Source: Narcine bancroftii
Taxonomy: Eukaryota
Assembly: GCF_036971445.1 (NCBI RefSeq)
Contig: NC_091471.1
Location: forward strand, 185,628,001-185,692,000
Reading direction: 5' to 3'
Length of the DNA stretch: 64,000 bases
Made by a program: the position numbers and the translations under genes. Below, piece by piece: positions 27,298 through 58,425 of this stretch (within the stretch, counting starts at the first letter, position 1; each line of letters begins with the position of its first letter). Below the pieces are notes generated by a model, which ran no database searches, was not told the origin of the DNA, and saw only the letters and a program-made list of their open reading frames with translations.

Positions 27298-27440
27298 CTG
27301 AAGAACAAGTTGAAGGTCTCTGGATAGATCAGAAATTCCATAGATCATCAGTGTCCCTTGGTCCTCAAAGGCTACTGGCAAAACAGGAGCAAAGAACTTC
27401 TGTGCAAAGTAATGAAGCATCTTCCATTTGCCACCATACT
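27298..27440 (-). CDS. MANBA: Beta-mannosidase exon
   Basis: [39 protein letters not shown]; cttag/gtacgt boundaries. Confidence 0.93.
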
Positions 27441-32413: not shown

Positions 32414-32449
32414 TTTCTTACCCCATCTCAATTGCATCAATATGTAGGA

Positions 32450-33100
32450 AAAGGGATGAGGATCTGTGGAATGAATTTAGAGTTAAGAATTATTTTTAAA
32501 AAAAGAAGACCTTGATGGTCATAATCTCTGGATTACTCTCAAAGCCACGTGCTATTCAGGTTAGGAATAGAAAGTTAGGTGAGATGAATGCATTGATGAG
32601 GAGCTGGTCCAGGGAGCAGGGATTCAGTTTCTTGGATCACTGAGATCTGTTCTGAGGCAGAGGTGACCCGTACAAGGAGGACAGGTTACGTCTGAATGGG
32701 AGGGGAACCAATATTTTGACAGAAATTTTACAGTGTGACTTGGGAAGGCTTAAATTGGACTTGCAGGGGCTGGGCCTCAGAATAGAGATGAGGCAGATGT
32801 GTGGGTTCTAATACAGTACTGTACTCAAAAAGCAGACGCTGTGGACAGGATAGGCAGGACTATAGCAAAGGGAGGGGAAAGAGCCATGGTTTGAACTTCA
32901 ATACAAGAGGCCTCAGAGGTACAGCAGAGTGTGGATTGGCTCAGGAGACAAGGTATTAAAACAGAAATGTGGGAGAGAGAAAGGCAAGACTTGTTCAAGG
33001 GTACAGATGCTAAAGGTACAATGGAGGACAGGTGGGGTGGGGGTTACCTTATTGATAAGGGAAGAAAATTAAAATGCTTAAAGAGGATATTATTCTTTGC
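32450..33100 (+). mobile_element. Old CR1 remnant (esterase end to APE start), continuing at about 38160-38340 after the DIRS insertion
   Basis: Resembles 14140-14800 (ttcttggatcactgagat, gggaccaatatt). Confidence 0.6.
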
Positions 33101-33105
33101 AATAT

Positions 33106-35139: not shown

Positions 35140-35180
<41 letters not shown>

Positions 35181-38154
35181 ATACATGCAGACCGCAACTG
35201 ATGGAGGCTGTACATGCTGAGATCATAACGTTAAAAAAAGAAAAATGTTATTGAACATTGTAGCCATGAAAAACACGAGTTTTATTAAACAACCCAAAAG
35301 AAGTGGCGGCACTAGAGTAATACAGGATCTATCGGATTTTAACGAATATGTCTTATACAGGCATTTTAAAATGGATAACATATATTCCGTGATGCCGATG
35401 TTACGTAAGGGCTATTACACGGCCTTGATAGATTTGCAAGACGTATACTATTCCGTCACAATCTGCCCACAGTATAGGAAATTCTTGAAATTTACCTGGG
35501 AGAGCTATGGTAATGTAAGGCTTTGTTGAATGGGCTGAGTTCGGCGCCCAGGGCATTTACCAAGTTACTGGAGTTTGCAAGGCTCAGGAAAGAGGGAAAC
35601 ATGGTAATTGGTTACCTAGACAATACCCTTATTGTGGGCAGATCGTTCGAGGAAACAAAAAGGGCAGTACCAGTCACCTTGAGATTATTAAGCCTCGTGG
35701 GGTTTCTTATACATTCCGAGAAATCAGTGCTGGTGCCTACTAAGAGGTTAAAATTCCTCGACTTCATTATTGATACAGAAGACATGAAAGTTAACCTGCC
35801 AGAGGATAAAGTGGCAGAGATTAGGACAGCCTACAGAGGGCTCATGACAGTCTCGTCCCTCCATAAGAAAGGAGGCTAGGTTGATTGGGAAACTGGTGGC
35901 GGCTTTCCCGACAGTACAATATGGTCTGCTAAATTATAGGTTCCTGGAAAGGGACAATATATCAGTTCTTAAAGCAGCAAGGGGACATTTTGACAGGCCC
36001 ATGAGGCTAACAAGTGAGACCAGATCCAACCTGGCTTGGTGGATCGACTATATCTTGCTGGCTTATTTGAGGATCAAGCTAAAAAAGGTGGACCTGGAGA
36101 TCAGGTCAGACACTAGTGGCGAAGGTTGGGGAGCCACAAATCTAAAGACCTCTGATGGAGGCAGATGGACAGACAGAGAGCTCAGGGAAGCCTCAAAATC
36201 AGGCATCAATTATTTGGAAATGCTGGCGGGTTTTTTTTAGCACTAAAATCTTTCTGTGTGAGGGAAGCTGACATTCATGTATTGCTGAGGTTGAATAACA
36301 CTTCAGCAGTGACCTACCTCAATAATATGGGAGGTTTCAAATCTCCTTCCTGTAACGTTATCCATTGAGACTTGGCACTGATGCATTCAAAGAAACATTT
36401 GGGTTACTGCCGCCTACCTGCCGGGTTGGATAAACACACAGGGGGACCTGATGTCCAGAAAATTCAATGATAGCACTGAGTGACTCTGGGTAAGAAATAT
36501 TTTAAATGGCTAGCAGACACCTTTGGCATGCCAGAGATAGATTTGTTTGCATCCAGGCTTAGTGCCCAGGTTCCGAGGTTTGTGTCCTGACTGCTGGATC
36601 CCCAAGCAGAGGCCATTGACGCCTTTACCATAGACTGGTCAAAATATAACTTTTATGAATTCCCCCCGTTCACCTTGGTGGCGAAGTGCCTGAATAAGAC
36701 GGTGCCATGGGATTGCTGGTAGTGCCAAATTGGCCTTCCCAACGTTGGTTTCCCGTACTCCTTAGGCTTATGGTGGGGAGTCCATTGGTATTCATGAAAA
36801 ACAAAGGTCTGCTAATCCAAACAATGTCAAAGATATCCATTGTCTCACTTAAGTCAGTTAGGTTGCAGGATCGGAGAGCGAGGATCGACATAAACACTCT
36901 GGAGCTTAGAACTCTAGACATCCTGAGGGCATCTTGGAGAAAGTCTGCTCAGAAACAGTATGCTTCCTAATGTGGAAATGGAAAAAGTACTGTACCCAAA
37001 TCGGACTGAATGAACAGTCAGCCTCTATCGGAGGTGTACTGAGTTTTCTAACCGATATGTTTTATGTACCAGGGCTTTCTTGATGCTCCAGGCCTCTGAA
37101 AATGAGATGATGAACCACCCCCTGATCAAAAGATTTATGAAAGGAGTGTTCCACTTGTATCCTCTGGTACCAGATATAAGGAAATTTGGGACATAAAGAT
37201 TGTTTTGGACTATTTAAGGCTACTGTCACCAACTTTCAGTTTGGACTACTTTCAGTTTGGACTTAAGTAGCCTGTCCCATAAGATGACATCGACCCAGAG
37301 AGTATGAACTTATAGACTATATCAGTTGGGAGGAGGACTGTGTAAGCATTCAAGTTATAGATATTTTGAAACAGGCAAGGGAGAATTGGGACAAAATTTT
37401 CATTGTATGCAAACAGAGAAGATGAAAGATGTATGTTTAAAAAGATACGTTGTATTTACAAAACATAAAGTCTAAATGAGAAATGCCTCTTTATATGTTA
37501 TAAAAAAACCGCATCAGTGGGCTACCTCCCAGACGTTGGCCAGATGACTGCGGGAAGTCATGAGAGTGGTTGGAGTGGTTATTTCTCAGTTTGGGTCCCA
37601 TTCAACTGGAGCGACGGCAACCTCGGCAGCCAATAGGGGAAGTATGCCTATATGGGAGAACCTTTAATAGGTTTTACAATAAGCCTTTAAATTTAGAGGG
37701 GCAGAGTTTCATGGCTTCCATCCTACACGCAGAAGATTGACAAAGGCTGCAGAAGGTGGACTCATTAAACTGATTATGGTCTGTCAGACCACCCTAAGGG
37801 GATAAGCCTCTGAGTTACAAAGTCTCACGTTGGCGAACCAACATTAAACGAACACTTATCTGTGGGAAGTTTGATGATGTTTATTCGAGCAATGGAAGTT
37901 GGTGAATCAACGTCCCCACCTCTCCCTCCCTTCTTCTTTTCTGTTTACGGATAAAGATGTCTGGCTGTAATAAATAACGTTCAGTCACAGGTTTGTGTTA
38001 TGGTTGCTTTGTCTAGTTTAGCTCATTTTAGTTCAGTGGCTTCTCCCCTCCGGACTGTGAAGGAATGGGATCTCACATTGACTGACCAACTCCCATTGCT
38101 CCAATAAACATCATCAAACTTCACTTACCATCAAACAGGTAAGTGCTTGTTTAA
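33106..38154 (+). mobile_element. DIRS-type tyrosine-recombinase retrotransposon, decayed
   Basis: Gag-like remnants 34000-34820; RT (IDLQDVYY, GLSSAPRAFTKLL, YLDN); RNase H (SDTSGEGWG, INYLEM); methyltransferase-like block (IDLFASRL, DAF, LVVPNWPSQRWF); YR remnant (HST); internal complementary region 37823-37902. Confidence 0.88.
35143..35178. repeat. (TA)n microsatellite within the DIRS element
   Basis: About 18 TA units. Confidence 0.95.
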
Positions 38155-38442
38155 TGTTCCATTCATGAAGGTATCATCTAGTGAGGCTATGTGTAGATAC
38201 GAAGGAATGGTTTCTTTGATGCGCTCCCCAATTATCAATGAGAAATGGTTCATGTGTTGGGAAATTGCAGATTACTGTCAGAATAACAGGATAGGATTAT
38301 TGGGAAATATTAGTTTCCTGAATATTATCATGGTACATAAGGCCAACACCACACCCTGCACTCTGTGGCTCACTGTACCAGCACATCCTGAACTCTGTGA
38401 CTCACTGTAACACTACACCCTGCACTTTGTCACTGTAACACC

Positions 38443-39359
38443 TGTGACCCAGGCGCGATTAGTGGGGTTAAGGTGCCTCCAGCACCTTTTAAGGTGAGGG
38501 GGGGATAGCCCCAATAAATCGCCAACTTGGCAATTTAAGGGGGATCCCACCCCCACAATGACATGGTAACTGACGCATCACGCAGCTGTCAGTTTCCCTC
38601 CCATTGTCGATTGTGCTCCCCCACAGCTCTGCGGCAGCCAGTCCCTCTGCCCCCGTGGCAGCTGACCCCTCTCCTCTCTCCCTCGCAGCAGCGATCCTTC
38701 TTCCACTGATCGTAGCACCCCCTCACCCCCCCATGCGACGTCGACTTCTCCCCCCATGGCAGTGACCTCACACACCCAATTTGTGGCCTCAGTCTCTCCC
38801 CCTCATGGCAGAGAGCACTCCATGACACCCCCCCCCCCCTTCACCCTGGGCCCTGGCAGTGACCCCTCCCCCAATCACCGCCGACATTTCAGTCGTGGTT
38901 TCCCTGTGACACAGATGTGCAAGCGGACATCACAGGAGTGACTGGGTTGGCCATTTTCCTCTTCAAGCCGGTGGACGTGACCTAGGTAAGTTTAGCCGGG
39001 TTCCCTGACTACCTCCGAGGTAGGGCAGGGACTCGGTTGATTTTGGAGCCCACTGACCAGGTTGGACACTTTTAAGCTGCTGCGTGAGTGGGGTGTTTAC
39101 CGGGCAAACTGGTCGGTTTGGAATGCTCTGCCACAGAGGGTGGTAGAGGCAGATTCGCTGATTATGTTCAAAAGAGAGTTAGATAAGACTCTAGTGGGCA
39201 AAGGAGTTAAGGGTTATGGGGATAAGGCTGGAAAGGGGTACTGATGGTAGTGATCAGCCATGATCTGTAAAATGGCGGTGCTGGCTCGACGGGCCAAAGG
39301 GCCTACTCCAACTCCTATTGTCTATTAACCCCATTTTACAAAGCAGCTTGAAAGCACCT
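38443..39359. mobile_element. MITE family A copy 1 (left end lost; CR1 tail inserted at about 39118-39326)
   Basis: Similar to 41987-42372; right end gcagcttgaaagcacct followed by ACT. Confidence 0.65.
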
Positions 39360-39388
39360 ACTGTAACACTGTACACTGTGACTCAAGT

Positions 39389-39813
39389 AGGCCCTTGTAA
39401 AATGGGGTTAACTGACCAGTTTGCCCAGTTAACGCCCCAGTTACACGACAGATAAAAAGGGTCCAACCGGGTCAACCTTGATGGAACCCAATCAGGTCCT
39501 TGACCTACCTCAGAGATAGTTAGGGAACCCAGTTAAACTTACCTAGGTTGTGTCCACAGGCGATTTGAACAGGAAGAAGCCTGACCTGTTTATTCTGCTG
39601 ATGTCAGCTCTTACTTGCATTTATCACTGGGCAGCCAGCATCTGAACATCTGGCAGTACTTCTGGTGAGTGCATGGCTCATCATTGCAGGGACAGATCCC
39701 CTTAAATCGCTGGGTACCCCATGCAATTTAAAAGGTGCTTCTAGCACCTTTTCCCCAGTAATCGCAGCCAGATCCCAGGAGGGCTACCCAAGTACTGCAA
39801 TTTAAAAGGGACT
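39389..39813. mobile_element. MITE family A copy 2 (opposite orientation)
   Basis: AGT|aggccctt...aaaagggact|ACT. Confidence 0.7.
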
Positions 39814-39846
39814 ACTGTAACACTGTACCCTGCACTCTGACTTTCT

Positions 39847-40566
39847 AGGCCCTTTCAAGCTGCCATGTAAAATGGGGTTAACCAGGCAAATTGCCCAGTT
39901 AGTGCCCCACTCATACGGCACCTCGAAAGGGTCCAACCCAGACAGCATGGTCCTAATCTAATCAACTCCCTGACATACCTCAGATATAGTCAGGAACTCA
40001 GTTAAACTTATCCAGGATGCATCCTCCGGCGGCTTGAACACCAAAATGGCCAACCCAGTCACAGCTTGCAGGCTGGCATCACAGGGAAACCCCTGGGTGA
40101 AGTGGCTGCTGCAATTGGGGGGTGAGGAGAGAGGTTGCTTCTGCAGAGCTTGGGGTTGGGGGAGGAAGAGGTCTCTACTGCAAATGGGAGAGGAGAGGGG
40201 TTGCTGCCATGGCAGCGGGGGGGAGGGGGAGGAGGGAAAAGAGAAGGGGCCGCAAACTGCCACTGCTGTAAATGCCACTCCAGTTGTGACAGCTCAACTT
40301 TTGCGGCAGCAAGATGTTGCTGAGGGGGGTGGGCACGATTGATGGGATGGGTGTTGATTGATGGGAGTGGGGGTCGATGGAGACTTACCGATGGTTCCCA
40401 ATTGCGTGACGCATCTCCACAGGGGCAGGATCCTCCTTAAGTTGCCAGTTTGGTGATTTAATGGGTCAATCCCCCTGCAGTTTAAAAGGTGTTGGAAGCA
40501 CCTTTGCCCCCTAATTGCACCTGGGTCCCAAGAGGGCTACTCAGGTGCTGCAGCTTAAAAGTGCCA
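39847..40566. mobile_element. MITE family A copy 3
   Basis: aggccctttcaagctgc...gcagcttaaaagtgcca|ACT inverted termini. Confidence 0.7.
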
Positions 40567-40603
40567 ACTGTCACACTGTACCCTGTAACTTACTGTGTCA
40601 TTC

Positions 40604-41889
40604 GACCTCTAGTACAATCCCAGGCATCTGCATATGACGGCTTTGCAATCAGGCAAGTGTGAAATGGGTAATTGCATTGTGGGATTGAAATGACCCAAGT
40701 TTTTGCATGAGTGCAGGAATGTGAAGGAAGAAAAGATTAAAATGAAGCTTCTAAATTTTGCAATGGGAAAGTCACAGCGGGAGAGAGAGGAAATAAATAG
40801 TAATAAATAGCAATAGCAGAAAATTTTTAAACTTGTGCTAAAGTGCACAATTTGTAAAGACGTGGGAAAAAGCAACAGTGGACCTGACTTCCCAGAATGC
40901 CGTGTGGCAGAGAAACCCCTCCATAAATGCTCTGTGCATACAACCCTTTTCTCTGCCGCATGGAATTCTGGGAGGGCAGGTCTGCCATCACTTTTTCCTA
41001 CGGTATTTGTAAATAGTAAGCGATAGTGCTACCAACTTTCCCACCCTGTTTAAAAATTGTCCACTATTGCTATTTATTGCTAGAACTTTCCCACGATCAC
41101 TTATAAAGGTTTATATAGGTTGGCACAATTACAGGAGCTGAAGGACTGTATATAAAGCTTAATTATGTTATAATTAGGCATAATAAATTTTGTTCAAATA
41201 TAAGATCATAATACATTGATCAGAATTTAGGGCACGAACAGTCCTAACCCCGGGGATAACTCTTTGCAAGTGTGAAAACGTTCAGTGTCCCAGTGAGGAG
41301 TGGTCAAGTGTGAAAAGCCAAACCCCCATTCATATACCAGGACACTGAATGGCCAGCCGATCCCTCCCTCCCAGCTATCGGTAGATCGCTCGCCCACCCG
41401 CTCCCTCCCTGTCGGTCAGTCGCCCACCCACCCTCCACCCCCCCCGCCCTTCAGGGCCACTTCAGCATGTCACGACAGTGGCAAAATGTGAGATGAATGG
41501 CCGATTTTGTTTCCCATAATCCCTCACACAGCTGGAACCACTCTGGGAAATACAGCTGTGTGAGGGATTATGGTTAAAAAGGACAGCCATTCATCCCGCA
41601 TAGTGCTGCCGTCATGATGGGTCGAAGCAGCTTGCTGTTCTCTGGCGGTAAGTTATCTTTTAATCGCCTACGTGATGCAGCATGCAAGCACTGACGTCAC
41701 GAGACTTCCCTGCTTGGCCATTTGGCTCTTCACACTGCAGGGAGAGGGCGGTCTGTGAAAATTTACCAGGGCTGCAGTAGGGCCCGTTTAAAATTCTCGG
41801 GATAACATTTTCACACCACAGGTTCACGGGAGGGTTCCCAGGAAAATTTCCGGGGAATCCCCATTTTACAATGAGGTGTGTAAAGGCCT
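40604..41889. mobile_element. MITE family B copy (reverse orientation, truncated) joined to a family C segment
   Basis: 40604-41355 is the reverse complement of the reassembled 42524-53086 element; right end ggtgtgtaaaggcct|AAT. Confidence 0.65.
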
Positions 41890-41986
41890 AATGTAACACC
41901 GCACCCTGCCCTCTGTTACTCACTATAATACCACATCCTGCCCTCTGTTACTCACTATAACACCATAACCTGCACTCTGACTCAGT

Positions 41987-42372
41987 AGCCTCTTTTGAAC
42001 TGTAGCACCTGGGTAGCCCTCCTGGGACCCAGGTGCGATTACTGGGGCAAAGGTGCTGGAAGCACCTTTTAAATTCCAGGGGATTGACCCATTAAATTGT
42101 CAACCCAGCAATTTAAGGGGGATCCCGCCCCTGTAATGACGCGTCACATACGCACTGGAAGTATTGCCGATTGTTCGGATGTTGTATACCCAGTGATGCA
42201 CATACGCAAGAGCTGACGTCACCAGAATAAACGGGTCAGCCATTTTAATTTTCAAATCGCCTGTGGACATGACCTGGGTAAATTTAACTGGGTTCCCTGA
42301 CTATCGCTGAGGTAGTGTTATAGTGCAAATTGCTCGGTTAACCCCATTTTACACGGCAGTTTGAAAGGGCCT
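41987..42372. mobile_element. MITE family A copy 4
   Basis: AGT|agcctcttttgaactg...cagtttgaaagggcct. Confidence 0.72.
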
Positions 42373-42619
42373 ATCTGACACCGCAACCTGCACTGTGACT
42401 CACTGTAACACCACACCCTGTATTCTGACTTGCTGTAACACCGCACTCTGCGACTCACTGTAACACCATACCCTGAACTTTGTGACTCACTGTAACAATG
42501 CACCCTGCACTCTGTGACTCAGTAGCCCCTTTTACACTTGCGTCCCACTAAATCGGCCATTCAGTGTCCCGGGATAGGAATGGCGTTTTTGCTGTTCACA
42601 CTTGACCACTCTTAACTGG

Positions 42620-45600
42620 TGTGGTGGTATGTCATGCATAATGTCATTAATAACATATAAGCCCCGGGGGATCCCTTCCCTCTCATTCTGGCCTAGGCTT
42701 GTACAGAGGCAAGACCAAGGCCACAAAGCCTATCTGTATACCAGTCTATTAAAATTAGTGTTTTACCTGCACTCTGCCTCGTGTGGTTTGATGCTAGTAG
42801 CCTACAATTTAATAGAGTGCTATGCATCTCCAGAATGAACGCCCTGCTAGACCTCGACTCAGCCGAGGCTCAGGCACGGAAACGGGCCCTGAGCACATGC
42901 AGCCAAAAACAGACCCTCAGAAAGCTGCAAGATTGGGATCAAGAGCGAGGGGGGAGCCCACCCCACAGTCGTGGTGAATTTTAGAAACACCCCGGAACAG
43001 GTAACAAGTGGCAGAGTGCCCTACTTGCTCACGAACTCACCGGGACCAGGATCAGCCGTGCAGCACGCGGGGATCCCGGGGCAAGTAATGAGTGGCAGAG
43101 TTGCCCTGTTCGCGAACTCACCAGGGCAGCACGCGGGGTACTTTGTGTACGACCAGGAGTCATGCCAGACACAGATGAAGGGCATTCGGCAAGTCGCCTT
43201 GCCGATCGCGGTTTACCATCAGGATCAGGGGGATGGTCTGTTACCCGAAGCCACCCCCAACCGTCTCCGACTCCCCGGAGGGGGCCCGCGTCTCTGCAGG
43301 GGCGAGCGACCACATGCGAAAGGGATCAGACCCAGCACGCGCATACCCCCCAGCTATTGAACCACAAGCTGAGGCTCAGCCAGGTACTGTGGCCAGAGAA
43401 GCTTGAGCTGGATCCCAGAACCCCCGGTGGGAGCATGCATTTTGGCCGGTGGTATAGGTGTTTTTTAAATTATGCGAGGGTAGAGGGAGCATCAGAGGAG
43501 GAAATGCTGGTGCTACTGCTGGCTCAGCTAGGAGATCGTCCGTACTCATTAATTCAGGATGCCAAGTCATACCGGGAAGCAATGGACACTTTGCAAAGAC
43601 ATTATAATAGGGGGCACATCTAGCTGCACTCCAGGCACAGGTTCATGACCAGGTCACAGCAAGCAGGGGAGTCTGTTAGAGACTTTATACTCACGCTAAA
43701 GGATATGGCGAGGGCTTGCAATTTTAAGACAGTATTTGCCCAAGAGTATGCAGACGACCTGGTGAGGGACTGAATTGTAGCCAGGGTCAGGTCAACAGAG
43801 ATAAGACAGAGCCTATTCGAAAAGGGGACAGTGAGGCTAGATAAGGCTGAAACCATTGTGGAGGCTCTGGAGGACTCTAGGAGGGACCTAGAGGAGTACA
43901 CTGAGCTGGACTCGTGGGCCACTTACAGGGAAAGGTACATGGGTGAACAAGGGCAACATTCCGCAGCAACTGCCTCATTAGACTGTTCCAAGTGCGTTTT
44001 ATGTGGGCAGCTAAAGCACCTCAGAGCACACTGTCCAGCTAAGGAGAAGCACTGCTTGAGGTGTGGAAAGAAGGGGCATTATGCAAAAGTATGCAGAAGC
44101 CTCAAGGCTCCCGCCAAAGCCCTCCCTCATGCAAATGAGAGGTGGGAAAGATCTTCTCCTTCCCCCACAGGCAAGACAAAGCAGTGCACCATGTGCTGTT
44201 GGCCATCTTGGGACTCCAGGCAGAGGACACAGCGACCAGATGATGGCTTCGGTACCGAGTGCTACGATCGAGGTTGGGATAAAAACTCCTATCAGAATGG
44301 AGGAAGCACCAGGCTGGCCTCATTACGGTAAGTCCGCACAACCTATTGGACACGACCATTAGTATTAAGGTTAACGGGGCTACTGTAAATTGTTTGGTGG
44401 ATAATGGGAGTACAGAGAGTTTTATAGACCAAAGATTGGTAGAACACCTCGCGTTAAAAACATACCCCAGTGACCATCAGATCCTAATGGCATCTAACAA
44501 CCATGTGACTAAGGGCAACCACTTCTGCAGGGTCAATCTGGAAATCCAGGGTATGGCGCATGAGGAGTTTAAATTGCTGGTGCTTCCACGCCTCTGTGCT
44601 CTAGTGCTGCTGGGGATGGATTTTCAGTGCCAACTGAAAGCATCATAATGGTGCACGATGGGCCACTTCCCCCATTAATCCTTAGAAGGAAGCGTTACTG
44701 CAACCTCACAGCCCTGAACATAGAGCCCCCCCCCCCCTTTATTCATGCACCTCACGCCTGACTGCACCAAGAGCAAGAGGTACAGCCCAAAAGACAGGGA
44801 GTTTATCGGTACAGAAGTCCATAGACTCCTGCAGGAGAACATTATAGAAAAGAGTTCCAGTCCCTGGAGAGCACAAGTAGTGGTAGTGAAGTCCGGGGAG
44901 AAGAGGCGTGTGGTTGTAGACTACAGTCAGACTATCAACAAATTCACGCAGCTGGATGCATACCCACTTCCGCATATCGCGAACATAACATAACAATTAC
45001 AGCACGAAAACAGGCCATTAGGCCCTTCTAGTCCGCACCGAACCAAACACCCCTTTCTAATCCCACCTCCCTGCACAATGCCCATAACCCTCCATCTTCT
45101 TCTCATCCATATACCTGTCCAACCTTTTCTTAAATAATACAATTGACTCCGCCGCCACTATTTCTCCCGGAAGATCATTCCACACAGCTACCACTCTCTG
45201 AGTAAAGAAGTTCCCCCTCATGTTACCTCTAAACCTCTGCCCCTTAATTCTTAACTCATGTCCTCTTGTTTTAAACTTTCCTCCTCTTAACGGAAATAGT
45301 CTATCCACATCCATTTTGTCTATCCCTTTCATAATCTTAAATACTTCTATCAAATCCCCTCTCAACCTTCTACGCTCCAAAGAATAAAGACCCAATCTGT
45401 CCAATCTCTCCCCATACTCCAGATGCTTAAACCCAGGCAACATTCTGGTAAACCTTCTCTGCACTCTCTCCACTCTGTTTATATCCTTCCTATAATTAGG
45501 CGACCAGAACTGCACACAGAACTCCAAATTAGGCCGCACCAACGTCTTATACAATCTCAACATCACCTCCCAACTCCTATATTCCATGCAATGATTGATA

Positions 45601-48600
45601 AAGGCCAGCATACTAAAAGCCTTCTTCACCACCCTATTCACGTGAGTTTCTACCTTCAGGGAACGATGTACCGTCACTCCTAAATCTTCCTGCTCTTCTG
45701 TATTCCTCAATGCTCTCTCATTTACCACATATGTCCTATTCTGATTCTTCTTACCAAAATGAAGCACCTCACACTTATCAGCATTAAATTCCATCTGCCA
45801 TTTTTCAGCCCACTTTTCTAAGCAGCCCAAATCCCTCTGCAATCCTTCTTCATTATCCACTATTCCACCTATCTTAGTATCGTCTGCATATTTACTAATC
45901 CAATTCACCACCCCATCATCTAGATCATTAATGTATATAACGAACAACAATGGGCCCAATACAGATCCTTGAGGCACACCACTGGTCACCGGCCTCCAAC
46001 CTGACAGACAATTATCCACTACCACTCTCTGGCCTCTCCCTTTCAGCCAATGTTCAATCCATTTGACTATCTCAAAATTTATACCTAAAGACTGCACCTT
46101 CCTAACTAACCTTCCATGTGGTACCTTATCGAAGGCCTTACTGAAGTCCATATAGACAACATCCACTGCGCTACCCTCATCCACATTCCTAGTCACCTCT
46201 TCAAAAAATTCAATCAGATTGGTCAAACATGACCTTCCTCCCACAAATCCATGTTGAGTGCTCCTGATCAGACCCTGTCTATCCAGATGTTTATAAGTAC
46301 TATCTCTAAGAATTTTCTCCATTAATTTACCTACCACAGACGTCAAACTTACAGGCCGATAGTTGCCAGGCTTCCTCCTTGAACCCTTTTTAAATAACGG
46401 AACCACATGCGCAATGCGCCAATCCTCCGGCACTATCCCCATATCTAATGACATGGTAAACAGCATTGCCCAGTACAAAGTGTTCTCCACTAGAGACCTC
46501 AAGGCAGCGTACCACCAGTTGCCCATTAGAAAGAACGATAGGATATATACGGCGTTCAAAGCGAACAGCAGGTTGTACCAGTTCCTCACCTCCCCTTTGG
46601 TATCACCAATGGGGTATCCCTGTTCCAGCGGAAGATGGACCACATAGTGGACGAGTACCACTTACCTGGACAATGTTATGTTCTGCGGTCACTCACAAGC
46701 TGACCATGATGCTAACCTTCAACGTTTTTTTCAGGCAGCAAAAGACTGCAATTTAACATACAATAAGGATAAACGTGTCTTTAGCACCAGGAAGTTAGCA
46801 ATCCTGGGCTACGTGTTGCAAAATGGGGAAATCAGCCTGGACACGGCCCGCATGCGCCTGCTGCTAGACCTCCCCATCCCTCATTCTCAAAAGACATTAA
46901 AGAGGTGTCTGGGGCTGTTTACATACTATGTGCAGTGGGTTCCCAATTATACCGACAGGGCCCACCCACTCATAAAGGCCTCAACTTTTTCACCTCAGCC
47001 CTGCTGCTATCAAAGCCAAAGAGATCAAGAATCTGATAGCAAAGGCAACCCTGCGATCCATTGACAAGACCATCCCTTTTCAGGTGGAGACCGACACCTC
47101 AGATGTGGCGTTGGCGGCCAGCCTGAATCAAGAATCATTGCCGGTGGCCTTTTTCTCGCGGACCCTCCAGGGGTCCGAGGTAAGACACTTGGCAGTGGAG
47201 AAGGAGGCCCAGGCCATTGTGGAAGCAGTGCGGCACCGGAGATATTTTCTGGCCTGTAAACGCTTCACCCTTGTCACGGACCAACGATCTGTGGCGTTCA
47301 TGTTCGATAACCAGAACAGGGGGAAGATAAAGAATGATAAAATCTTGCGCTGGAGGATAGAATTGTCGACGTACAGCTACGACATCCTATACCGTCCAGG
47401 GAGGCTCAATGAACCCTTAGACGCATTGTCCAGGGGCACTTGCGCGGCCCTTAATCACATGTCCCAGCTGCAGAGCTTGCACAATGAGTTGGGCCACCCA
47501 GGAGTCACGAGGCTCTTCCACTTTGTCAGGGCCCAAAACCTCCCATTCTCAGTGGAGGAGCTACAGATGGTAAGCAGGGGTTGCCCCATCTGTGCGGAAT
47601 GTAAACTGCAGTTCCACCGACCAGACAGCGTCCCTTTAATAAAAGCTACCAGGTCTTTCGAGCGGCTTAGCCTTGACTTCAAAGGCCAACTCCCGTCCTA
47701 CAACAGGAACAATTATTTCCTAAAGGCTATCGACGAGTACTTACAGTTCTCCTTTACTATCCCGTGTCCCAATGTCACCCCAGCCACAGTAATAAAGTGC
47801 CTGCAATCTATATTCAGTTTGTGTGGGTACCCTAGCTATATACACATGGATAGGGGTGCTGCCTTCATGAGCACCGAGGTCCAATAGTACCTCAGGGATA
47901 GAGGCATTGTGACCAGTTGCACGAGTTATAACCCTTGGGGAAATGGGCAGGTAGAAAGGGAGAACGCCACCATCTGGAAGACGGTTCTGCTAACTCTCAA
48001 AGCAAAGGACCTACCAGTAGCAAGGTGGCAAGATGTGTTACCAGAGGCTTTGCACTCCATACGCTGTTTATTGTGTACCGCCACTAACGTGACACCACAT
48101 GACCGCATCTTTTCTTTCCTGAGGAAAGCTGCGACAGGCACCGTGCTGCCTAGATGGCTGATGTCGCCAGGACCGGCCCTCCTCTGCAAGCATTGCAGAC
48201 GCCACAGGACGGACCTGTTGGTGGAGCCCGTGGAAGTGAGGCACGTGAACCCTCACTGCACCTACGTCGCATTCGAGGATGGATGGGAAGACTCAGTGAC
48301 AACCAGGGACCTCGCACCGACAGGAGACATGGGCAGCACAGAAGAACTACAGAGCCCTACAGATCAGCAGGACGGGCTGGCAGACCACGCAGGAGTACCA
48401 CAGGCTCCAAAGGATCAGCAGGAAGGAACCACGGTCGACGTGGGAGGGTCGCGGACCCCCATGGAGCAGCATGAAGAGCGGCAGACGAACACACCCCCAC
48501 GGGCGGAAAGCCCTGCACCCACGCACCATACTCTCGCCCAGGGCCAAGACTCCCAGGCCCTGGCACCCCCCATCTCCCCGCCCCGGCCCCCTGAAGGTCC

Positions 48601-48902
48601 AGAAGGAAGAGGAAACCATGTCAAATACTGGACATAAATGGGTGCAAAGAGACAGAGGGGGTAGGGGGGAGGGTCAGTCACAATTTTTTAAGGGGGGGGT
48701 GCATAATGTCATTACACCACTAGGTCACCAGGTGGCTCACCTGGTGACCTTGTATATAAGCCCGGGGGATCCCTTCCCCCTCATTCTGGCTTATGCTTGC
48801 AGAGGCAAGACCAAGGCCTCAAAGCCTAGCTTTATACCAGTCTATTAAAACTAGTGTTTTACCTGCACTCTGCCTCGTGTGCTTTGATGCTAGTAGCCAA
48901 CA
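42620..48902 (+). mobile_element. Gypsy/Ty3 LTR retrotransposon, decayed
   Basis: LTRs 42620-42806 and about 48700-48902; ACTGG TSD; G-rich PPT; gag with CCHC knuckle (CLRCGKKGHYAKVC); protease (CLVDNGST); RT (SPWRAQVVVV, DAYPLP); RNase H (ETDTSD, VEKEAQA); integrase (HPGV..CPIC, LSLDFKG, GNGQVER). Confidence 0.92.
44987..46450 (-). mobile_element. Young 5'-truncated CR1 inserted in the Gypsy RT
   Basis: Uninterrupted RT frame (QGSVLGPLLF, YADDTK) of about 465 codons; (ATGTT)n tail; splits Gypsy PLPHIAN|MVNSIAQY. Confidence 0.92.
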
Positions 48903-49263
48903 ACTGGGACACTGCATACATTCACACTTGCAATGAGCCATCCCTGGGGTTAGGACTGTTCCACCTTCGACCGGTGATGTCATGATGCAATGGTGGACCT
49001 GCCTTAAATCCTGATCAATGTATTATGACCTTATATTTGAACAAAATTAATCATGCCTAATTATAACACAATATGAGCCCTTCAGTCCCTGTGGTTGATT
49101 CATCGACCTATATAAACCTTTATGAGGGTCCATGGGAAAGTGCTAGCAATAAATAGCAATATTGGACAATTTTTAAACAGCGTGGGAAAGTTGGTACAAT
49201 TCATAAAGACCATGGGGAAAAAGTGATGGCAGACCTGCCCTCTCAGAATTTTGTGTGGCAGAG

Positions 49264-51363
49264 GGTACAGAGTAGAAATTTTGAGGGTACAGAGTAGTTA
49301 TGTCTCAGTGTGGATTAAAGGAAAGGCTGGAAGTCATAGGGAGGCTTGGTTTTTGAGGAATATTGGAAATTTGGTTAGGAGAAAAAGGGAGGTGTACAAG
49401 AGGTATAAAGAGCAGGGAGCTGAGAAGTTGAAGGAGGACTACAAGGAGTGTAGAAGGAATCTTAAGAAAGAAATTAGAAAGGCCAAAAAAAGGCATGAAG
49501 AGGCTTTGGCTGACAGAGTAAAAATAAATCCAAAGGGTTTCTATAAGTACATTAAAAGTAAAAGATTAGTGAGAGATAAAATTGGACCCCTTGTAGATAG
49601 CGAGGGTAGGCTGAGTGAGAAGTCTGAGGAAATGGGGGAAATTTTGAATGATTTCTTTGCCTCGGAATTCACTAGGGAAAAAAATGTTGAACCAGTTGAA
49701 GTAAAGAAAAATGTGGGGAGGTCATGAAGCATATAAGGATAACCAAGGAGGTAGTGATGGCTGTGTTAAAAAAGATAAAGGTGGATAAATCTCCCGGACC
49801 GGACAAAATATTCCCTCGGACACTCAGGGAGGCTAGTGGACAGTTAGTGGGGCCATTAACAGAGATATTTAGGATGTCACTGGCCACGGGGGTGGTACCA
49901 AAGGATTGGAGGGTGGCGCATGTGGTTCCTCTGTTTAAGAAAGGGTCCAAATGCAAACCTGGGAATTATAGGCCTGTAAGTCTGACGTCTGAGGTGGGCA
50001 AGTTGATGGAAAGTGTTCTGAGGGATGCTATTTACAAATTTTTGGAGGTACAGGGATTGATAGGGAGCAATCAGCATGGTTTTGTCAGGGGTAGATCATG
50101 CTTGACAAACCTGATTGAGTTCTTCGAGGGGGTTACAAAAAAGGTTGATGAAGGGAAAGCTGTGGATGTTGTCTATTTGGACTTTAGTAAAGCTTTTGAC
50201 AAAGTTCCCCACAGGAGGTTAGGAAAAAAGGTGGAGGCATTAGGTATAAATAAGGAGGTAGTGAAATGGATTCAGCAGTGGTTGGATGGGAGGTGTCAGA
50301 GAGTAGTGGTAGAAAATTGTTTGTCCAATTGGAGGCCGGTGACTAGTGGAGTTCCTCAGGGTTCGGTCCTGGGTCCACTATTATTTGTTATATATATATT
50401 AACGATCTGGATGTAGGGGTGGAGAATTGGATAAGCAAGTTTGCGGATGACACAAAGATTGGTGGTGTTGTGGACAGTGAGGTAGATTACCGTAGATTAA
50501 AAGGTGATTTAGGAAGGCTGGAGGTGTGGGCTGAGAAATGGCTGATGGAATTTAATACAGATAAATGTGAGGTGCTACATTTTGGAAAGGCAAATTTAAA
50601 TAGGTCATATACATTGAATGGTAGACAATTGAGGAGTGCAGAGCAACAAAGGGATTTAGGAGTTATGGTAAATAGTACCCTCAAGACTGATACTCAGGTA
50701 GATGGTGTGGTGAAGAAGGCATTTGGAATGTTGGCCTTCATAAATCGGAGTATTGAATTCAAGAGTAGGGAGGTTATGATGAAATTGTACAAGGCATTGG
50801 TGAGGCCAAATTTGGAGTACTGTGTACAGTTTTGGTCACCAAATTATAGGAAAGATATAAACAAAATAGAGAGTGTGCAGAGAAGGTTCACGAGAATGTT
50901 GACAGGATTTCAGGGTCTGAGTTACAGGGAAAGGTTGTGCAGACTGGGGCTTTTTTCACTGGAGCGTAGAAGATTGAGGGGGGACTTGATAGAGGTGTTT
51001 AAGATTTTAAAAGGGACAGACAGAGTAAATGTGGATAGGCTTTTTCAATTAAGAAAGGGGGAGATTCAAACTAGAGGACATGGTTTATGATTGAAGGGGG
51101 AAAATTATAAGGGGAACATGAGGGGAAATTTCTTTACGCAGAGGGTGATGGGGATGTGGAATGAGCTTCTGGCAGACGTGGTCGAGGCGGGATCATTGGT
51201 TACATTTAAGGAAAGACTGGATCGTTACATGGATAGGAGGGGACTAGAGGGGTATGGACCGGGTGCTGGTCAGTGGGACTAGGAGGGTGGGGATTTACTA
51301 CGGCATGGACTAGTAGGGCCGAACTGGCCTGTTCTGTGCTGTAAGTGGTTATATGGTTATATG
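49264..51363 (+). mobile_element. 5'-truncated CR1 LINE
   Basis: RT frames 49724-51282 with few frameshifts; (ATGGTTAT)n tail. Confidence 0.92.
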
Positions 51364-51503
51364 GAGAAGGGGCTGTATACATGGCTGCATGCACGGACCA
51401 CTCGTGGAGGGGTTTCTCTGCTGCACGGAATTCTGCGAAGGGAGTCCGCCATCACTTTTCCCCCATCAGTCTTTATAAATTGTGCACATCTATCTTGGTT
51501 AAT

Positions 51504-52663
51504 GTGAGCTTGCAGGCGCCTCAGATTGAAGAGACTGCCATCCGTGCGGTACCGGATGTAAACAGCGTCTGAGGCGCCTGCAATCTGAGGCGCCTTCAAT
51601 CTGAGGCGCCTGCAAGCTCACACCAAGACACAAGAGAAACTTGTCCGTGAACTACTCTTTGCAGATGATGCCGCTTTAGTTGCCCATTCAGAGCCAGCTC
51701 TTCAGCGCTTGACGTCCTGCTTTGCGGAAACTGCCAAAATGTTTGGCCTGGAAGTCAGCCTGAAGAAAACTGAGGTCCTCCATCAGCCAGCTCCCCACCA
51801 TGACTACCAGCCCCCCCACATCTCCATCGGGCACACAAAACTCAAAACGGTCAACCAGTTTACCTATCTCGGCTGCACCATTTCATCAGATGCAAGGATC
51901 GACAATGAGATAGACAACAGACTCGCCAAGGCAAATAGCGCCTTTGGAAGACTACACAAAAGAGTCTGGAAAAACAACCAACTGAAAAACCTCACAAAGA
52001 TAAGCGTATACAGAGCCGTTGTCATACCCACACTCCTGTTCGGCTCCGAATCATGGGTCCTCTACCGGCACCACCTACGGCTCCTAGAACGCTTCCACCA
52101 GCGTTGTCTCCGCTCCATCCTCAACATCCATTGGAGCGCTCACACCCCTAACGTCGAGGTACTCGAGATGGCAGAGGTCGACAGCATCGAGTCCACGCTG
52201 CTGAAGATCCAGCTGCGCTGGATGGGTCACGTCTCCAGAATGGAGGACCATCGCCTTCCCAAGATCGTATTATATGGCGAGCTCTCCACTGGCCACCGTG
52301 ACAGAGGTGCACCAAAGAAAAGGTACAAGGACTGCCTAAAGAAATCTCTTGGTGCCTGCCACATTGACCACCGCCAGTGGGCTGATAACGCCTCAAACCG
52401 TGCATCTTGGCGCCTCACAGTTTGGCGGGCAGCAGCCTCCTTTGAAGTAGACCGCAGAGCCCACCTCACTGACAAAAGGCAAAGGAGGAAAAACCCAACA
52501 CCCAACCCCAACCAACCAATTTTCCCTTGCAACCGCTGCAATCGTGTCTGCCTGTCCCGCATCGGACTGGTCAGCCACAAACGAGCCTGCAGCTGACGTG
52601 GACTTTTTACCCCCTCCATAAATCTTCGTCCGCGAAGCCAAGCCAAAGAAAAGAAAGAGAAAG
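51504..52663 (+). mobile_element. Young 5'-truncated RTE LINE with 5' inversion
   Basis: LLFADDAAL, FTYLG, QLRWMGHV.RM..R.PK, C-terminal C2H2-like motif; TSD ATCTTGGTTAAT at 51492-51503 and 52664-52675. Confidence 0.92.
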
Positions 52664-53183
52664 ATCTTGGTTAATATGGTTTATAGTGTGAAAAATAAAA
52701 ATTTTAAAAAAATAAATAAATTGTGCACGACACCGCAACCAACTTTCTCACGTTGTCTATAAATTGTCCGCTATTGCTATTTATTGCTAGCACTTTCTCT
52801 GTCTTCTGCTGCAACTTTCCCATGGCAAAGTTTATATCTTCATTTTAATCTTTTCTTCTTTCATGTTCCTGCAGTCACTCGGAAACTTGGGTCATTTCTG
52901 TCATAGAAAGCAATTGCCTTTTTTACACTTGCCTGATTGCAATGCCAGCGTCTGCAGTTGCTGGGTATTGCACTAGAGGCTGAGCTAGTCTATCCCTGGC
53001 ATGAGACGATTTTCATTCCACTCTTGTCCCTTTTTAGATCGATTGGCAGTTAATTCCAAGGATCACTTGCAAGTGTGAAAGGGGCTACTTTAATAGCACA
53101 CCCTGGCCTGTGACTTACTGTAATACTGCACCCTGCACTCTGTGACTCACTGTAACACTGCACCCTGCACTCTATTACTTACT

Positions 53184-53936
53184 AGGTCTTTTTATAGAGG
53201 AAAAAAAAGTGAATGTAAAGGTGGATATTGTCCACCTTTACATTGCTTCACCTACTTTTATAAAAACGCCGATGGCAGATGCTGGATGCGTACTCCAAAT
53301 CTTCCAGGGGGGTAGTCCCGAAGGTGAAGCAAATTGCTCCACCTCGCTCCATAAAGGCAATTCAACAAAATGCGGCTGCTTAGACACGGGCTTATGACGT
53401 CGCGATGACGCTGTCAGCCTGCGACCCAGGAACCACCACCAGGGCTCCCATGGTGATTGGTGCTGAGGTTTAGGGCTCTCTCCTGCCACCTAGAAATGTT
53501 CCCTTCCTGTTCTCCCTCCATCCCTCACCAAGTTGCGGAGACCAAGGAGCAGGAGGGCAGCTAGGAGCCCGAGAGATTGGGAATGGACATGCAAGGTGAG
53601 GGGGAGTGGGGGGGGGGGAAAGAGTCCAGCCTGAAGAGCGTGAAGGCCCAGTGGGGCAAGGAGAGTCAGAGCCCACTGTGCCACCAGAGCCTCAGATTTT
53701 ATAACGAGATCCTATTTTTGTTTTAATGCGGGATCAATGCCCATCTTCATTACCCATAATCGGTGCTACTGCACCAATCATCCCGCCTCCTTCAGCTCCA
53801 GAGGACGGCTCCAGATGCCATTCTCTATAAAAGCAATGCTGAAGCAGCCTTATAGGGCTTCTCAATAAAAGGTAAGTCCACGTTTTTCTTTCCTCGTTGA
53901 GGCAGCCTCAATGTGGCAACGCTCTATAAAAAGGCT
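53184..53936. mobile_element. MITE family D
   Basis: ACT|aggtctttttatagag...ctctataaaaaggct|ACT. Confidence 0.75.
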
Positions 53937-55435
53937 ACTGTAATACTGCACTCTGTATTCTGTGACTCACTGTAACACCACACCGTGCCACGTGACTCAC
54001 TAGAGATTTTACGCAGCTGCTTCGTTCCAGGATATTTGCTGCTTTTTTACATTAGGCCTTCTGTGTAAAAAGCACTGTCATGGAATGGTTGGGGGGTTCG
54101 AGTCCCAGCTTTTATCCAGCAGCAGAGGTAGTAACAGTGCCAGAAAGCCAACTGTGTAAAAGGGGAATCCAGCATTCTGAGACCATCTCAGGTAAGAATG
54201 TGTATGCATACTGTAGCCACTGATGTTGCAGTGAGTAATTTGAGAGGAGAGAGTAACGAGTTGTAGTTTAGAGGCAGTTCAAAAATTGTTTTTTTTTACA
54301 GACGCACGCAACCTTTTTAAAAACCCTGAGTCACGTGCCCCAATAATGTCAACACGCCATGGTATCATAATGTTCGGCAGCTGGATGGCTGGAACTTGCA
54401 GTGCCACTACATGCCCTACCCCCCCACCAGAACCAGCTCAGAAAGGTCCAGTTCATTTGTTTTTGGCAGCCAGCCACGCCGTGGAACTGTTGTGCAAGTT
54501 TTAACCAGTCCACTGTGAACGTTTGAGGTTGTTCCCCAATGTCTAAGACACATGTTGTCCTACAGCTTCACAGCATTTTATATGGTCCTCTGTAAGGTGT
54601 TTGTAGGGGTGATCCGTGTATGCCCCTGTGGACAAAAATATACTCACAATCTTTGAGTTCCTTGGGAATGAAGGAAGATTGTGTGCCATGTCCAGAAGCT
54701 GGTATGGGAGCCAGTTTGCCTACCAACTCCTGCAGCTTCCACAGTGTTACTGACAGCTGGTCTTCCTGTCCACAAGGAAATGGCACGAACTCTCTAGGGA
54801 TGACCAGAGGTGCTCCATAGACCAACTCTGCTGACGATGAATTGAGGTCTTCTTTAGGTGCTATTCTGATGCCGAGTAGCACTCAGGAAAGTTCATCTGA
54901 CTAATCTGGTCCCTGTAAGCAGGCCAATAAGTGCTGTCTTCAGGTGTCTATGGAATCATACCACCATACTGTGGACTGTGGATGATAGGAGCTGTGTTCT
55001 TAGGAGTTTAGATAAAGTACTCCAGATGGCAGAGGTAAACTGCAGACCTTTGTCCGAAATGACGTGCAAACAGAGAGACCAGGATAACACAAAAACTCTG
55101 GCGCACGACTCAGTTGAAGTATCGACCATGGGAACTGCCTTTGGCCACCTAATAAACCTGTTGATGATGGTGAATAAATATTGGAATCCCCTAGACACTG
55201 GGATTGGGCCGATAATATAGACATGTACATGGTCGAATCTGCACTTTGGCAGTTCGAATGGCTGGAGCGGAGCTTTTACATGCTTAGACTTCTGGCAGTC
55301 CACGCACATCCTCGCCAAGTGAGTGATGTCTTTCTTCAGGGAGTGCCAGACAAATTTATCAGATACTAGGCAGGCTGTTGACCTAATGGAGGGATGTGAT
55401 AGGTCGTGAATGGCGTCAAAAATGTGGCGCCTCCA

Positions 55436-56330
55436 AATTTAGGATCAACTGACAATAGCTTTTTGATACGAGATACTTTAAAGGCATACCAACAAGGACA
55501 AATCATTTCATTCACAAAAAATATTAAAGAGAGTTTCATGCCGAAGTGAATAAATTGGAGAAAGAAATAGGAGAATTAGAAAAAGAATATCAAATGGGGG
55601 AACAAGACAAATATAGAACAATGGAAAATAAGAAAATTCAATTTAACACTTTACAACATACAGAGCAGAAAATAGAATATTAAACACAAAACAGAAATAT
55701 TTGTATTAGGAGAAAGGCCACACAAAATATTGGCATGGCAATTGAAGGCTGAAGAATCAGCAAGAGCTATAACTGCTATACAGAAGGAAAACAATACAGT
55801 CACATATAACCAGAAAGAAATAAATGAAACATTCAGACATCATAAAAATTTATATAAATCTGACTCACTGAATTTCTAGATCGTATGGAACTCCTGAAAC
55901 TGAATGGTAATGATAGACAAGAATTGGATTTAAATTTCAATAGGGAGGAAACTGAGAAAGCATTAGGAACTCCTCAAGCTAATAAAGCCCCAGGCGAAGA
56001 TGGATTTCCACTCAAGTTTTACAAAGAATTTAAAGATTTGTTAATGCCGTCATGCATGGACGTAATCGCAAGCAGTAGAAACACAGACATTGCTGGACTC
56101 TTTCTCAATGGCAATAATTACTGTGTTACCCAAACAGAATAGAGATCCATTTAAAACTTCTTCCTTTCGACCAATATCTCTATGAAACACAGATTATAAA
56201 ATAATAGCAAAAGCACTGACGAACAGGTTTGGACAGTATTTACCCAGGTAAACTGACTATTTTATTTATGTAAAATAGATATATTTGATATATATTTGAA
56301 AACCAAAAATAAAATATTTAAAAAAAAGAA
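55436..56330 (+). mobile_element. Decayed L1 ORF2 internal fragment with A-rich end, inserted in Gypsy 2
   Basis: HKILAWQLK, KAPGEDGFP..FYK, RPISL motifs homologous to the 27959-30465 ORF2. Confidence 0.8.
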
Positions 56331-57688
56331 AATGTGGTATGGTTGTCTTGTGGAGACATCACAAAGTAGTGTATTGCCCTGTGGTCAGAAAGCCAAGTTC
56401 TGGAGCTGCAGGTTTGTAATGGCCATCTTGCAATCAGGTATCTCTGCTGTTGTGCCTTTGCCAGGGTGAAATAGTCAACACCTTGGAAAAGTGCGCATTG
56501 TTGTTGAAAAGCAGCATGGGAGAGAGCATTAGCCATCACATTCCTTTTTCTGGAGGTGTGGTCTATCTTGGTAGAGAACTCTGAAATGTAGTATAAGTGA
56601 CGTTGCTGACAGGCTGACTAAGGGTCTGAAGCTTTATCGAAAGTGAAAATCAATGCTTTATGGTCTGTAAAGACTGTAAAGTTTCTGCCCTCGAGGAAGT
56701 ACCAATAGTGCCCGATCACCAGCAGCTTCTTATCTGTGTGGCAGTGTTGGCTGAAGAATGCTAGTGGCTTCCATTGTTTGCTCATGTATTGTTCTAGCAC
56801 TCTTCTTCCGGCCATGTCAGATGCATCTGTTGATAAGGCAGTTGGTGTGTCCATACACAGGTGACTCAGCATGGTTGTGCTTGCTAGTGCATTTTTAGTC
56901 TCCCGAAAGGCACTTGTAGTTGTCTCCATCCAGCAAAGTTCCTTTTTACCTGTGACATCAGGTCAAAAAGAGGTTTCATGACATGTCGCAGCAGGAACGA
57001 AACGGTGGTAAAAATTTGCCATCCCAAGGAACTCTTGGAGACCCCTGAGCATTGATGGCTTTGGAAATCTCGAGATGGCCTCCACTTTAGTGGGTAACTG
57101 AACCACACCCTTGCATGTGATTCTGTGTCCCAAGAATTTGATGGTTGACTGTCTGCACTGGGATTTTGCTGGATTAACTGTGAGCCCGAACTCTCGCAAG
57201 CGGCTAAGGAATAAACGCAGGTGCTTTGACTGTTCTTCATGGGTGTGGCTGGCGGTGAGATGTCATCTAAGTAGATGAAAATGAAGTCCATGCCACACCC
57301 CACTGCGTACATCAGGCACTGAAATGTTTGCACAGCATTTTTCAGTCCGAAGGGCATCCACAAAAATTCAAATAAGCCACGTCTTCTGGGTTAACAGGGA
57401 TTTGGTGGTAATCATGCACCAAATCTATTTTTGAGAAAATCCTGGCCCCGTAAAGATTTGCCATAAAGTCTTGTATGTGGGCCACAGGATAGCGATCTGC
57501 TGTTGTTGCGTCCTTTAGCCATCTGTAATTGCAGCAGGGTCTCCAGCCTCCCATGGCTTTGGGCACCATATGCAATAGTGATGCCCATGGGCTATCTAAC
57601 CTACTTATAATGCCTAACTCTATTTCAGCAAACCTCTGCTTCACAAGGCGCAACTTTTCAGGCGGCAGTCAACAAGCTCTGGCATATA

Positions 57689-58425
57689 ATTGGTTACACA
57701 GGCTATATATCACGCCCCAAAAGTTAAATAAATGGGACCCAACAGTATCAGATACATGTTTTCAATGTAAGAAGGAAACGGGAACAACAGTACATGCAAT
57801 TTGGGCATGTGAGAAAGTGGAAAAGTTTTGGGAAGATCTAAATCAGGTATTAAATAAAATCACAAACAATCCAGAGATCTTTCTTCTAAGTAATATAAGA
57901 AGTTAAGAAGTAGGCCTCAAACTGGATGAAGCACAAAAAAAAATTATTATGATAGCCTTCGCGGTAGCAAAAAAATAAGTAATGTCAACTTGGAAATCAG
58001 AAGAGCCTGAGAGTACAGCAATGGTACACAGAAATGAATAAATGTATTCCATTGGAAAAAATAACATATAATTCAAAAAATAAAGTCACATTATTTGAAC
58101 AAATTTGGGAACCGTACATGGAACACAACAGAGAGGACCTACCGCGGTCCTCCACCCCCGAAAATGATAGAATGAGAAGACGACAAAATGAACTGACCCA
58201 GTGTGTAAAAGTAGATGACACAATTTTCTTGTTTATTTTCATTGTGTGATGACATTGTTTAATGTTTATTGTATTGTATATGTTGAACCTTTAATGGGTT
58301 GGGAAGGAGGGAGGGAAGGGAGGGGGGGGAAAGGGGAGAAAATGACATTGTGCACATTCAAGAGGGAAATGTTTGTGTGTATTTTGGTTAATATGGTTCA
58401 TAGTGTGAAAAATAAAAAATTATAA
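57689..58425 (+). mobile_element. 5'-truncated L1 3' end inserted in Gypsy 2
   Basis: Cys-rich C-terminus (CFQCKKETGTTVHAIWAC), G-rich 3'UTR, A-rich tail; 18-bp TSD AACAAGCTCTGGCATATA at 57671-57688 and 58426-58443. Confidence 0.9.

Follow-up and report, generated by a model that had tools for sequence, protein, structure and literature searches.

Why should a tandem repeat be broken again and again, by different transposons, at the same base? The question is raised by a 64,000-nucleotide stretch of the Narcine bancroftii genome (contig NC_091471.1, forward-strand positions 185,628,001 to 185,692,000, assembly GCF_036971445.1; hereafter the window), in which a 32-bp satellite is interrupted by eight inserts with AG...CT ends. 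A preliminary description of this DNA had proposed that a site-specific Harbinger-like transposase repeatedly targets the satellite, making it a landing pad and a record of insertion history. We conclude that the array is a dense hot spot of elements of a known type and not a site-specific system, and nothing tested gave any sign of a recording or memory function. The shared position of the inserts is probably explained by a short C-ANT-G target motif together with independent Harbinger insertions at a near-optimal site present in every satellite unit; the high density of inserts needs a further factor.

A satellite interrupted at one position

The 32-bp unit was verified by a 20-nt piece that matches eight times, against 0.02 expected from 100 shuffles, and Tandem Repeats Finder reported a period of 32 at 38345, 41894, 42445 and 53108. 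Eight satellite segments, 608 bp in sum or ~19 units, alternate with eight inserts (I1 to I8):

38341..38442, plus strand: satellite segment 1, ~3 units
38443..39359, plus strand: I1, family A (subfamily A2), left end deleted, right end followed by ACT
39119-39326: another repeat of ~200 bp inserted in I1
39360..39388, plus strand: single satellite unit, ACT on its left and AGT on its right
39389..39813, minus strand: I2, family A, 425 bp, inverted relative to I5, duplication AGT/ACT
39814..39846, plus strand: single satellite unit
39847..40566, minus strand: I3, family A, 720 bp, inverted relative to I5, duplication TCT/ACT
40567..40600, plus strand: single satellite unit
40601..41889, minus strand: I4, family B, inverted relative to I6, left end deleted, right end followed by AAT
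41890..41986, plus strand: satellite, 3 units
41987..42372, plus strand: I5, family A (subfamily A1), 386 bp, AGT on the left, right side degenerate
42373..42523, plus strand: satellite, ~5 units
42524..53086, plus strand: I6, family B, own sequence ~1.1 kb, duplication AGT/ACT
42655-42807 and 48754-48903: long terminal repeats (LTRs), 92% alike, of an LTR retrotransposon nested in I6, which also holds three fragments of long interspersed nuclear elements (LINEs)
53087..53183, plus strand: satellite, 3 units
53184..53936, strand unassigned: I7, family C, 753 bp, duplication ACT/ACT
53937..54001, plus strand: satellite, 2 units
54002..54211, strand unassigned: I8, family D, left end only
54212-54411 and 59669-59866: LTR pair interrupting I8

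Recognisable element ends remain at 13 of the 16 positions, and all 13 lie at the unit's ACT, two of them being off by 1-2 bases because of small indels. I1 and I4 have lost their left ends, and no right end of I8 was found. The preliminary description had these features right: about eight interruptions at one ACT, with every junction coordinate it quoted, at least four families with AG...CT ends lying in both orientations, and no transposase gene in the window (none among 53 open reading frames (ORFs) of at least 120 amino acids). Within family A, I1, I2, I3 and I5 are 72-84% alike, with I1 and I5 forward and I2 and I3 inverted, while the two family B copies, I4 and I6, lie in opposite orientations and are 78-86% alike over local matches. 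A relative of I7 is present in another array (L061). The 10.5-kb span of I6 is mostly nested retroelements, presumably of the kinds that their ORFs suggest to us, and I6 is long because these landed inside it. Directly before the array (window 38336-38344) stands AAGGCC, possibly what is left of the end of a ninth element.

Short-read contigs cover one end-unit-end junction (39334-39513) with 0 differences, in a run that may come from the assembly's own sample. The short-read runs gave no usable empty-site or cross-species information on the array: joints that skip it have sides of <30 letters and high depth and likely derive from other arrays, and the 0.10 share matched by run X5 looks like shared repeats.

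The same register recurs elsewhere. Such inserts were found at no fewer than 28 other satellite loci, and 48 ends at the main site were collected from 27 loci including the window, with further cases at L061 and L064, representing at least seven end families; L074, L278, L327 and L311 carry two or three inserts each. One junction search behind this collection gave 35 matches against 19 in its control, with 30 loci fetched, of which all but the window's own and two already known were read, and five left out. With the genome-wide profile described below, no position of the unit scores higher than the ACT junction (143-379 times background); the next best is a TGT that, read from the unit, lies 8 bases upstream of ACT. 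These two are also the positions most used: scanned automatically, the window and 33 loci gave 55 ends, 31 at the first site, six at the second and 18 scattered; many of the 31 came from patterns that required the first site, whereas the second-site ends did not, and one of the six looks spurious. A second array, L327 (C8:186.44 Mb), lies 0.77 Mb from the window array, holds two or three AG inserts and has two ends at the TGT site.

Target preference of the elements across the genome

Elements of the AG...CT type number in the thousands, almost all in ordinary DNA. Family A gave 4,344 candidates, and exact ends numbered 976 for A1 and 189 for A2; the copy numbers are rough. Among family A copies selected by their ends, one of 159 lies in satellite (0 of 90 for A1, all drawn from contig C1, with L142 doubtful; 1 of 69 for A2), and none of the 29 best matches to I5 does. 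The proposed targeting thus stands in part: the elements are non-autonomous and of PIF/Harbinger type, duplicate an ANT triplet and have an extended preference, but they are not specific to this site.

That preference is visible in a logo of 278 flanking half-sites, which reads A (0.81), N, T (0.85), G (0.71), W, not-A, W, C, not-G and is flat beyond +9, i.e. 6 bases past the duplication. It describes a C-ANT-G palindrome ~15 bp wide and weak at its edges. The enrichment of flanks for satellite sequence foreseen by the preliminary description did not appear in family A, where satellite 6-mers were as frequent near the elements (0.034) as far from them (0.032), and the short motif was found instead. 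The register of the inserts follows from this general preference of the elements.

The 3-bp ANT duplication was established from paralogous empty sites that hold one copy of the three bases (e.g. L341, L355, L376, L381 and L408); candidate empty-site paralogues were available for 23 of 99 copies, several of them clear. Blunt insertion into a 6-bp CANNTG and duplication of TA, which the variable middle base of the triplet had brought to mind, were also considered, and are ruled out by the empty sites together with the satellite unit. In three loci (L192, L376 and L409), family A copies of both subfamilies occupy the same palindromic site of another dispersed repeat. A family B copy (L328:3056-4728) contains an internal 41-bp unit amplified ~20 times.

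Independence of the insertions

The window copies are independent insertions, repeated over time. In a tree of 79 family A copies (three of 82 were dropped for short overlap), I1, I2, I3 and I5 stand in four places, each with its closest match elsewhere in the genome; with the orientations, this bears out the earlier argument that tandem duplication alone is insufficient. In a second tree that includes A2 copies (117 of 122 copies, I1 being among the five dropped), the 20 satellite copies need 17 changes, against 18.8 with shuffled labels, and 106 of 1,000 shuffles were at or below 17. Support values are low, and the trees show the absence of a satellite-specialist clade, not a resolved history.

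An alternative without repeated insertion, copying of unit-plus-element blocks in tandem or inside a LINE, draws on the fact that the satellite expands and has travelled in a LINE end. It is largely refuted by the four families, both orientations, the separate places of I1, I2, I3 and I5 and the unclustered satellite copies, and we regard it as very improbable.

Origin of the satellite

The satellite is a pre-existing target and not part of the elements, as the preliminary description had also supposed. That the 32-mer might be a subterminal part of the transposons is ruled out by pure arrays and by element flanks that lack satellite. A search with a five-unit query gave 875 candidates, of which 40 were scored; one array pattern was swamped by satellite variants and used for listing arrays only. 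Each of six fetched 10-kb stretches consists of array without a break, and further arrays measure 1.8-8 kb. A 17-mer of the unit has 1,756 exact occurrences, yet at only eight loci on the 494-Mb contig C1, from which expanded arrays would number perhaps 50-100 or somewhat more. Very large pure 32-mer arrays, with higher-order spacing of ~2.5 and 8 kb, were seen on C96 (L067, L068 and L070) and at C27:61.15 Mb (L069), C8:322.17 Mb (L065 and L066) and C5:6.55-6.61 Mb.

Many dispersed arrays terminate in one common tail. A pattern for this tail gave 42 matches, and the 30 fetched mostly carry one or two worn units, several with broken LINE reading-frame remnants upstream of the unit; no insert was found within the units of these 30 tails. 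To judge from its motifs the LINE may be Rex1/Babar, Pfam giving no relevant match for eight short pieces. Such tails may number ~15,000 genome-wide, a very rough figure based on three in 675 kb. The C preceding ACT is present in expanded arrays and missing from most old tails. What is now a major satellite thus likely began as one or two units within the 3' untranslated region of an old LINE. The window also carries, at 62811-63170, a worn LINE 3' end; it is related to the satellite-bearing tail and contains one degenerate unit at most.

Candidate mobiliser and affiliation of the elements

A DDE_Tnp_4 search of the genome returned 1,405 candidates, of which 150 were scored and 30 loci read. 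Nine of the 30 (L229-L237) belong to one family, T2, 3.55-3.75 kb long with AG ends and ANT flanks, which pairs an intron-split DDE_Tnp_4 transposase with a convergent Myb_DNA-bind_4 (Myb/SANT) gene; none of the copies read is intact. Families E and F, which occur in other arrays, have the ends of T2, whereas families A-D appear linked to it by shared end type only. A T2-type PIF/Harbinger element is the likely kind of mobiliser. For one transposase from this genome, the closest named relatives are from electric ray, then bony fishes and frogs; bony fishes and frogs also have relatives of T2.

The commonest transposase family, T1 (L201-L225), was considered as a partner and ruled out by its different ends and TAA-type flank; it is a 2.1-kb Harbinger-type element with TAA-type flanks and several long open frames, in which no second gene was seen. 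A Plant_tran (PF04827) search for a Pangu-type transposase gave a single match, the L198 locus with its HARBI1-like ORF. Together with L199 and L200, L198 carries an intact HARBI1-like ORF (387-428 amino acids) without kin nearby among the loci read, and these are possibly domesticated genes.

We file the elements in the PIF/Harbinger (PHIS) superfamily: their inverted-repeat ends are accompanied by a 3-bp duplication, their preference reaches past it, and the combination of DDE_Tnp_4 with Myb/SANT was seen for T2, and hence for families E and F, but for none of families A-D among the 30 loci read. Like PIF/Harbinger elements and Tourist-like miniature inverted-repeat elements (mPing, zebrafish Harbinger3_DR), the system combines a 3-bp duplication, DDE and Myb-like genes, many short non-autonomous copies and an extended palindromic preference, for which widths of 9 bp (plants) and 15 bp (vertebrates) have been described (PMC2836001; PMC3016246). 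In contrast to them, the duplication here is ANT rather than TWA or CWG, the edges of the palindrome are weak, and a host satellite offers a site in every unit.

Assignment within the superfamily, between Pangu and NuwaII, we leave undecided. Pangu, as described by Han et al. (2015, PMC4482050), has ANT duplications, AG/GG ends, a length of ~3.5 kb and two ORFs, and the duplication and ends agree with ours; the 15 host genomes given there include no vertebrate, and a Myb_DNA-bind_4 second ORF appears in two of the 29 family rows listed. Unlike the 22-30 residues given for Pangu (PMC4482050), the spacer before the second catalytic block of T2 is 38-39 residues. NuwaII shares with T2 the Myb/SANT second gene and the fixed C and G flanking the 3-bp core, and its lancelet and turtle rows (spacer 35-36) resemble the T2 catalytic blocks by eye, but its target is C|TNA|G and not C-ANT-G (PMC4482050). 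Spacer length and this by-eye likeness would favour NuwaII over Pangu.

Mismatched middle base of the duplication

The two copies of the duplication often disagree at one position. In 90 family A copies with both ends (from L002-L030, L108-L197, L329-L358 and L376-L415), the first, second and third bases match in 70, 46 and 72, i.e. the middle base differs in 44 of 90 compared with 20 and 18 for the outer bases (P=3e-4 and 7e-5). In the window, I2 and I6 (AGT/ACT) show the same mismatch. At satellite junctions, the middle base is other than C in 14 of 48 ends, against 6 of 94 intact junctions, although intact units may be younger. For several of the mismatched copies there is an empty paralogue that is contiguous, which excludes mispairing of ends as the cause. 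In piggyBac, complementary donor bases are kept on the element and joined into the target. Were donor bases likewise retained and joined here, about half of the pairs would be mismatched, which may explain the middle base. For mPing, cutting at staggered positions within the duplications, leaving 5' overhangs, has been proposed (PMC4561436). Our literature search found no report of such donor-base carry-over.

Occupancy of the array and competing explanations

In the explanation we prefer, PIF/Harbinger-type transposases would favour a palindrome centred on C-ANT-G, and because every satellite unit would offer a near-optimal site, independent insertions could accumulate over a long time. The mobiliser would be a relative of the broken 3.6-kb T2, families E and F would be deletion derivatives of T2, and the system would now be dead. 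The short motif would set the register. For the dense occupancy something further is needed; most likely these elements cluster locally, a once longer array has shrunk, or both.

Several results weigh against this explanation. The motif predicts 0.005-0.024 family A inserts in 20 sites where four are seen, and the probability of at least eight in 19 units is ≤2e-7 even if 40,000 elements are assumed and the local rate is raised 7-fold; the window was picked as extreme, yet a few hundred arrays do not absorb the excess. Where family A ends are followed by an exact ANTGTAACA, 11 of 17 cases, one of them I1, lie in satellite or LINE-tail units, set against ~182,000 such 9-mers in ordinary DNA, and the left arm accounts for only a 13-20-fold (arrays) or 2-fold (tails) difference. 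Of arrays picked regardless of inserts, by the internal 17-mer, three of 11 carry family A at the register. Finally, of the coding elements with DDE and Myb-like genes that the preliminary description proposed to look for, T2 is a broken example, with the ends of families E and F, but none of the 30 transposase loci read (of 150 scored) holds a coding element with the ends of families A-D. We estimate that the excess depends on past unit number, being nearly nil with today's giant arrays and roughly 5-20-fold with small arrays and tails only.

Dedicated targeting, in which the satellite as such (a longer sequence, its tandem spacing or its chromatin) is recognised by the transposase or by a Myb/SANT partner and serves as a safe-harbour landing pad, would account for what remains after the motif, i.e. 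the 11 of 17, the three of 11 unbiased arrays and the eight in 19 units, as well as for seven or more end families at one site and for loci with two or three inserts each (L074, L278, L327 and L311). It sits poorly with one satellite copy in 159, the lack of a specialist clade, a logo flat beyond +9, flanks free of any satellite 6-mer excess and 30 LINE tails without an insert in their units. The six pure 10-kb stretches and a 4.2-kb array are also free of inserts, though these may be younger than the elements; with the short logo, they speak against a landing pad, and we consider dedicated targeting quite unlikely. Shrinkage would remove the excess without a new mechanism: an array once of hundreds of units would have received eight inserts at the ordinary per-site rate, slippage or unequal exchange then leaving 1-5 units between them. 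Arrays of 60 to >300 units do exist, some with a single insert (L061 and L062), and deletions are evident here, in that I1 and I4 lack their left ends and the array lacks its LINE tail. However, short arrays that retain the LINE tail also hold two inserts (L074, L278 and L327), and elements one unit apart recur (L375), which makes this addition possible but, on balance, unlikely.

Positive feedback, whereby new copies land near old ones (by binding resident ends or through a shared open region) and a row of sites fills in a chain, fits the eight AG-type elements in 187 kb beside family A, compared with two in 321 kb of neutral loci (P=0.007), and the end-to-end or near-adjacent pairs outside satellite at L111 and L163. 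Yet a facing end within 60 bp was found in only 2 of 275 flanks, the numbers are small, and a 7-fold boost leaves the gap unclosed; we find this addition rather doubtful. A bolder proposal is that a vertebrate Harbinger lineage, combining a NuwaII-like transposase with C-ANT-G as its target, is attracted beyond the 15-bp motif by the LINE-derived satellite or by earlier copies of itself, and so fills arrays in a chain. It would also carry three donor bases per end like piggyBac, whence the frequent middle-base mismatch. This strikes us as unlikely.

Returning to the C-ANT-G motif and independent insertion, the comparison with transposons that live in host repeats is instructive. Dada transposons insert in small-RNA genes. 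Both Dada and Pokey, the latter in ribosomal DNA (PMC3849761), resemble the present case in that a multicopy host sequence is hit again and again at one register. A site-specific repeat-targeting transposon has most of its copies, or a lineage of its own, in the repeat; here, unlike Pokey and Dada, ~99% of sampled copies lie outside it and there is no specialist lineage. Set beside a CRISPR-like memory array, in which acquisition would be polarised and the inserts processed or used, the inserts here are whole transposons of 0.4-1.3 kb in both orientations. Our literature search found no matching case, and the families may already be named in Repbase.

Genomic context

The array lies within an intron:

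27265..62096, minus strand: part of a beta-mannosidase-like gene, with an intron of ~34 kb between exons at 27.3-27.6 kb and 61.9-62.1 kb

A Mannosidase_ig (Pfam) match falls in the exon at 25.7-26.1 kb; the two exons flanking the array we take to be beta-mannosidase-like, those scanned giving no Pfam match. The gene (window 24788-63400, minus strand) stands tail to tail with Death-domain exons (12113-13261, plus strand), which are presumably NF-kB p105/p100-like.

Conclusion

A modest target preference of a known kind can make a host satellite a repeated sink for several transposon families, with an outcome that resembles a repeat-spacer array. The elements add an ANT-target Harbinger lineage in a vertebrate with a NuwaII-looking transposase, a pairing that does not appear among the groups surveyed in PMC4482050. 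If the excess occupancy reflects real tethering, the system would be a natural model of how a two-protein transposase can be directed to tandem DNA.

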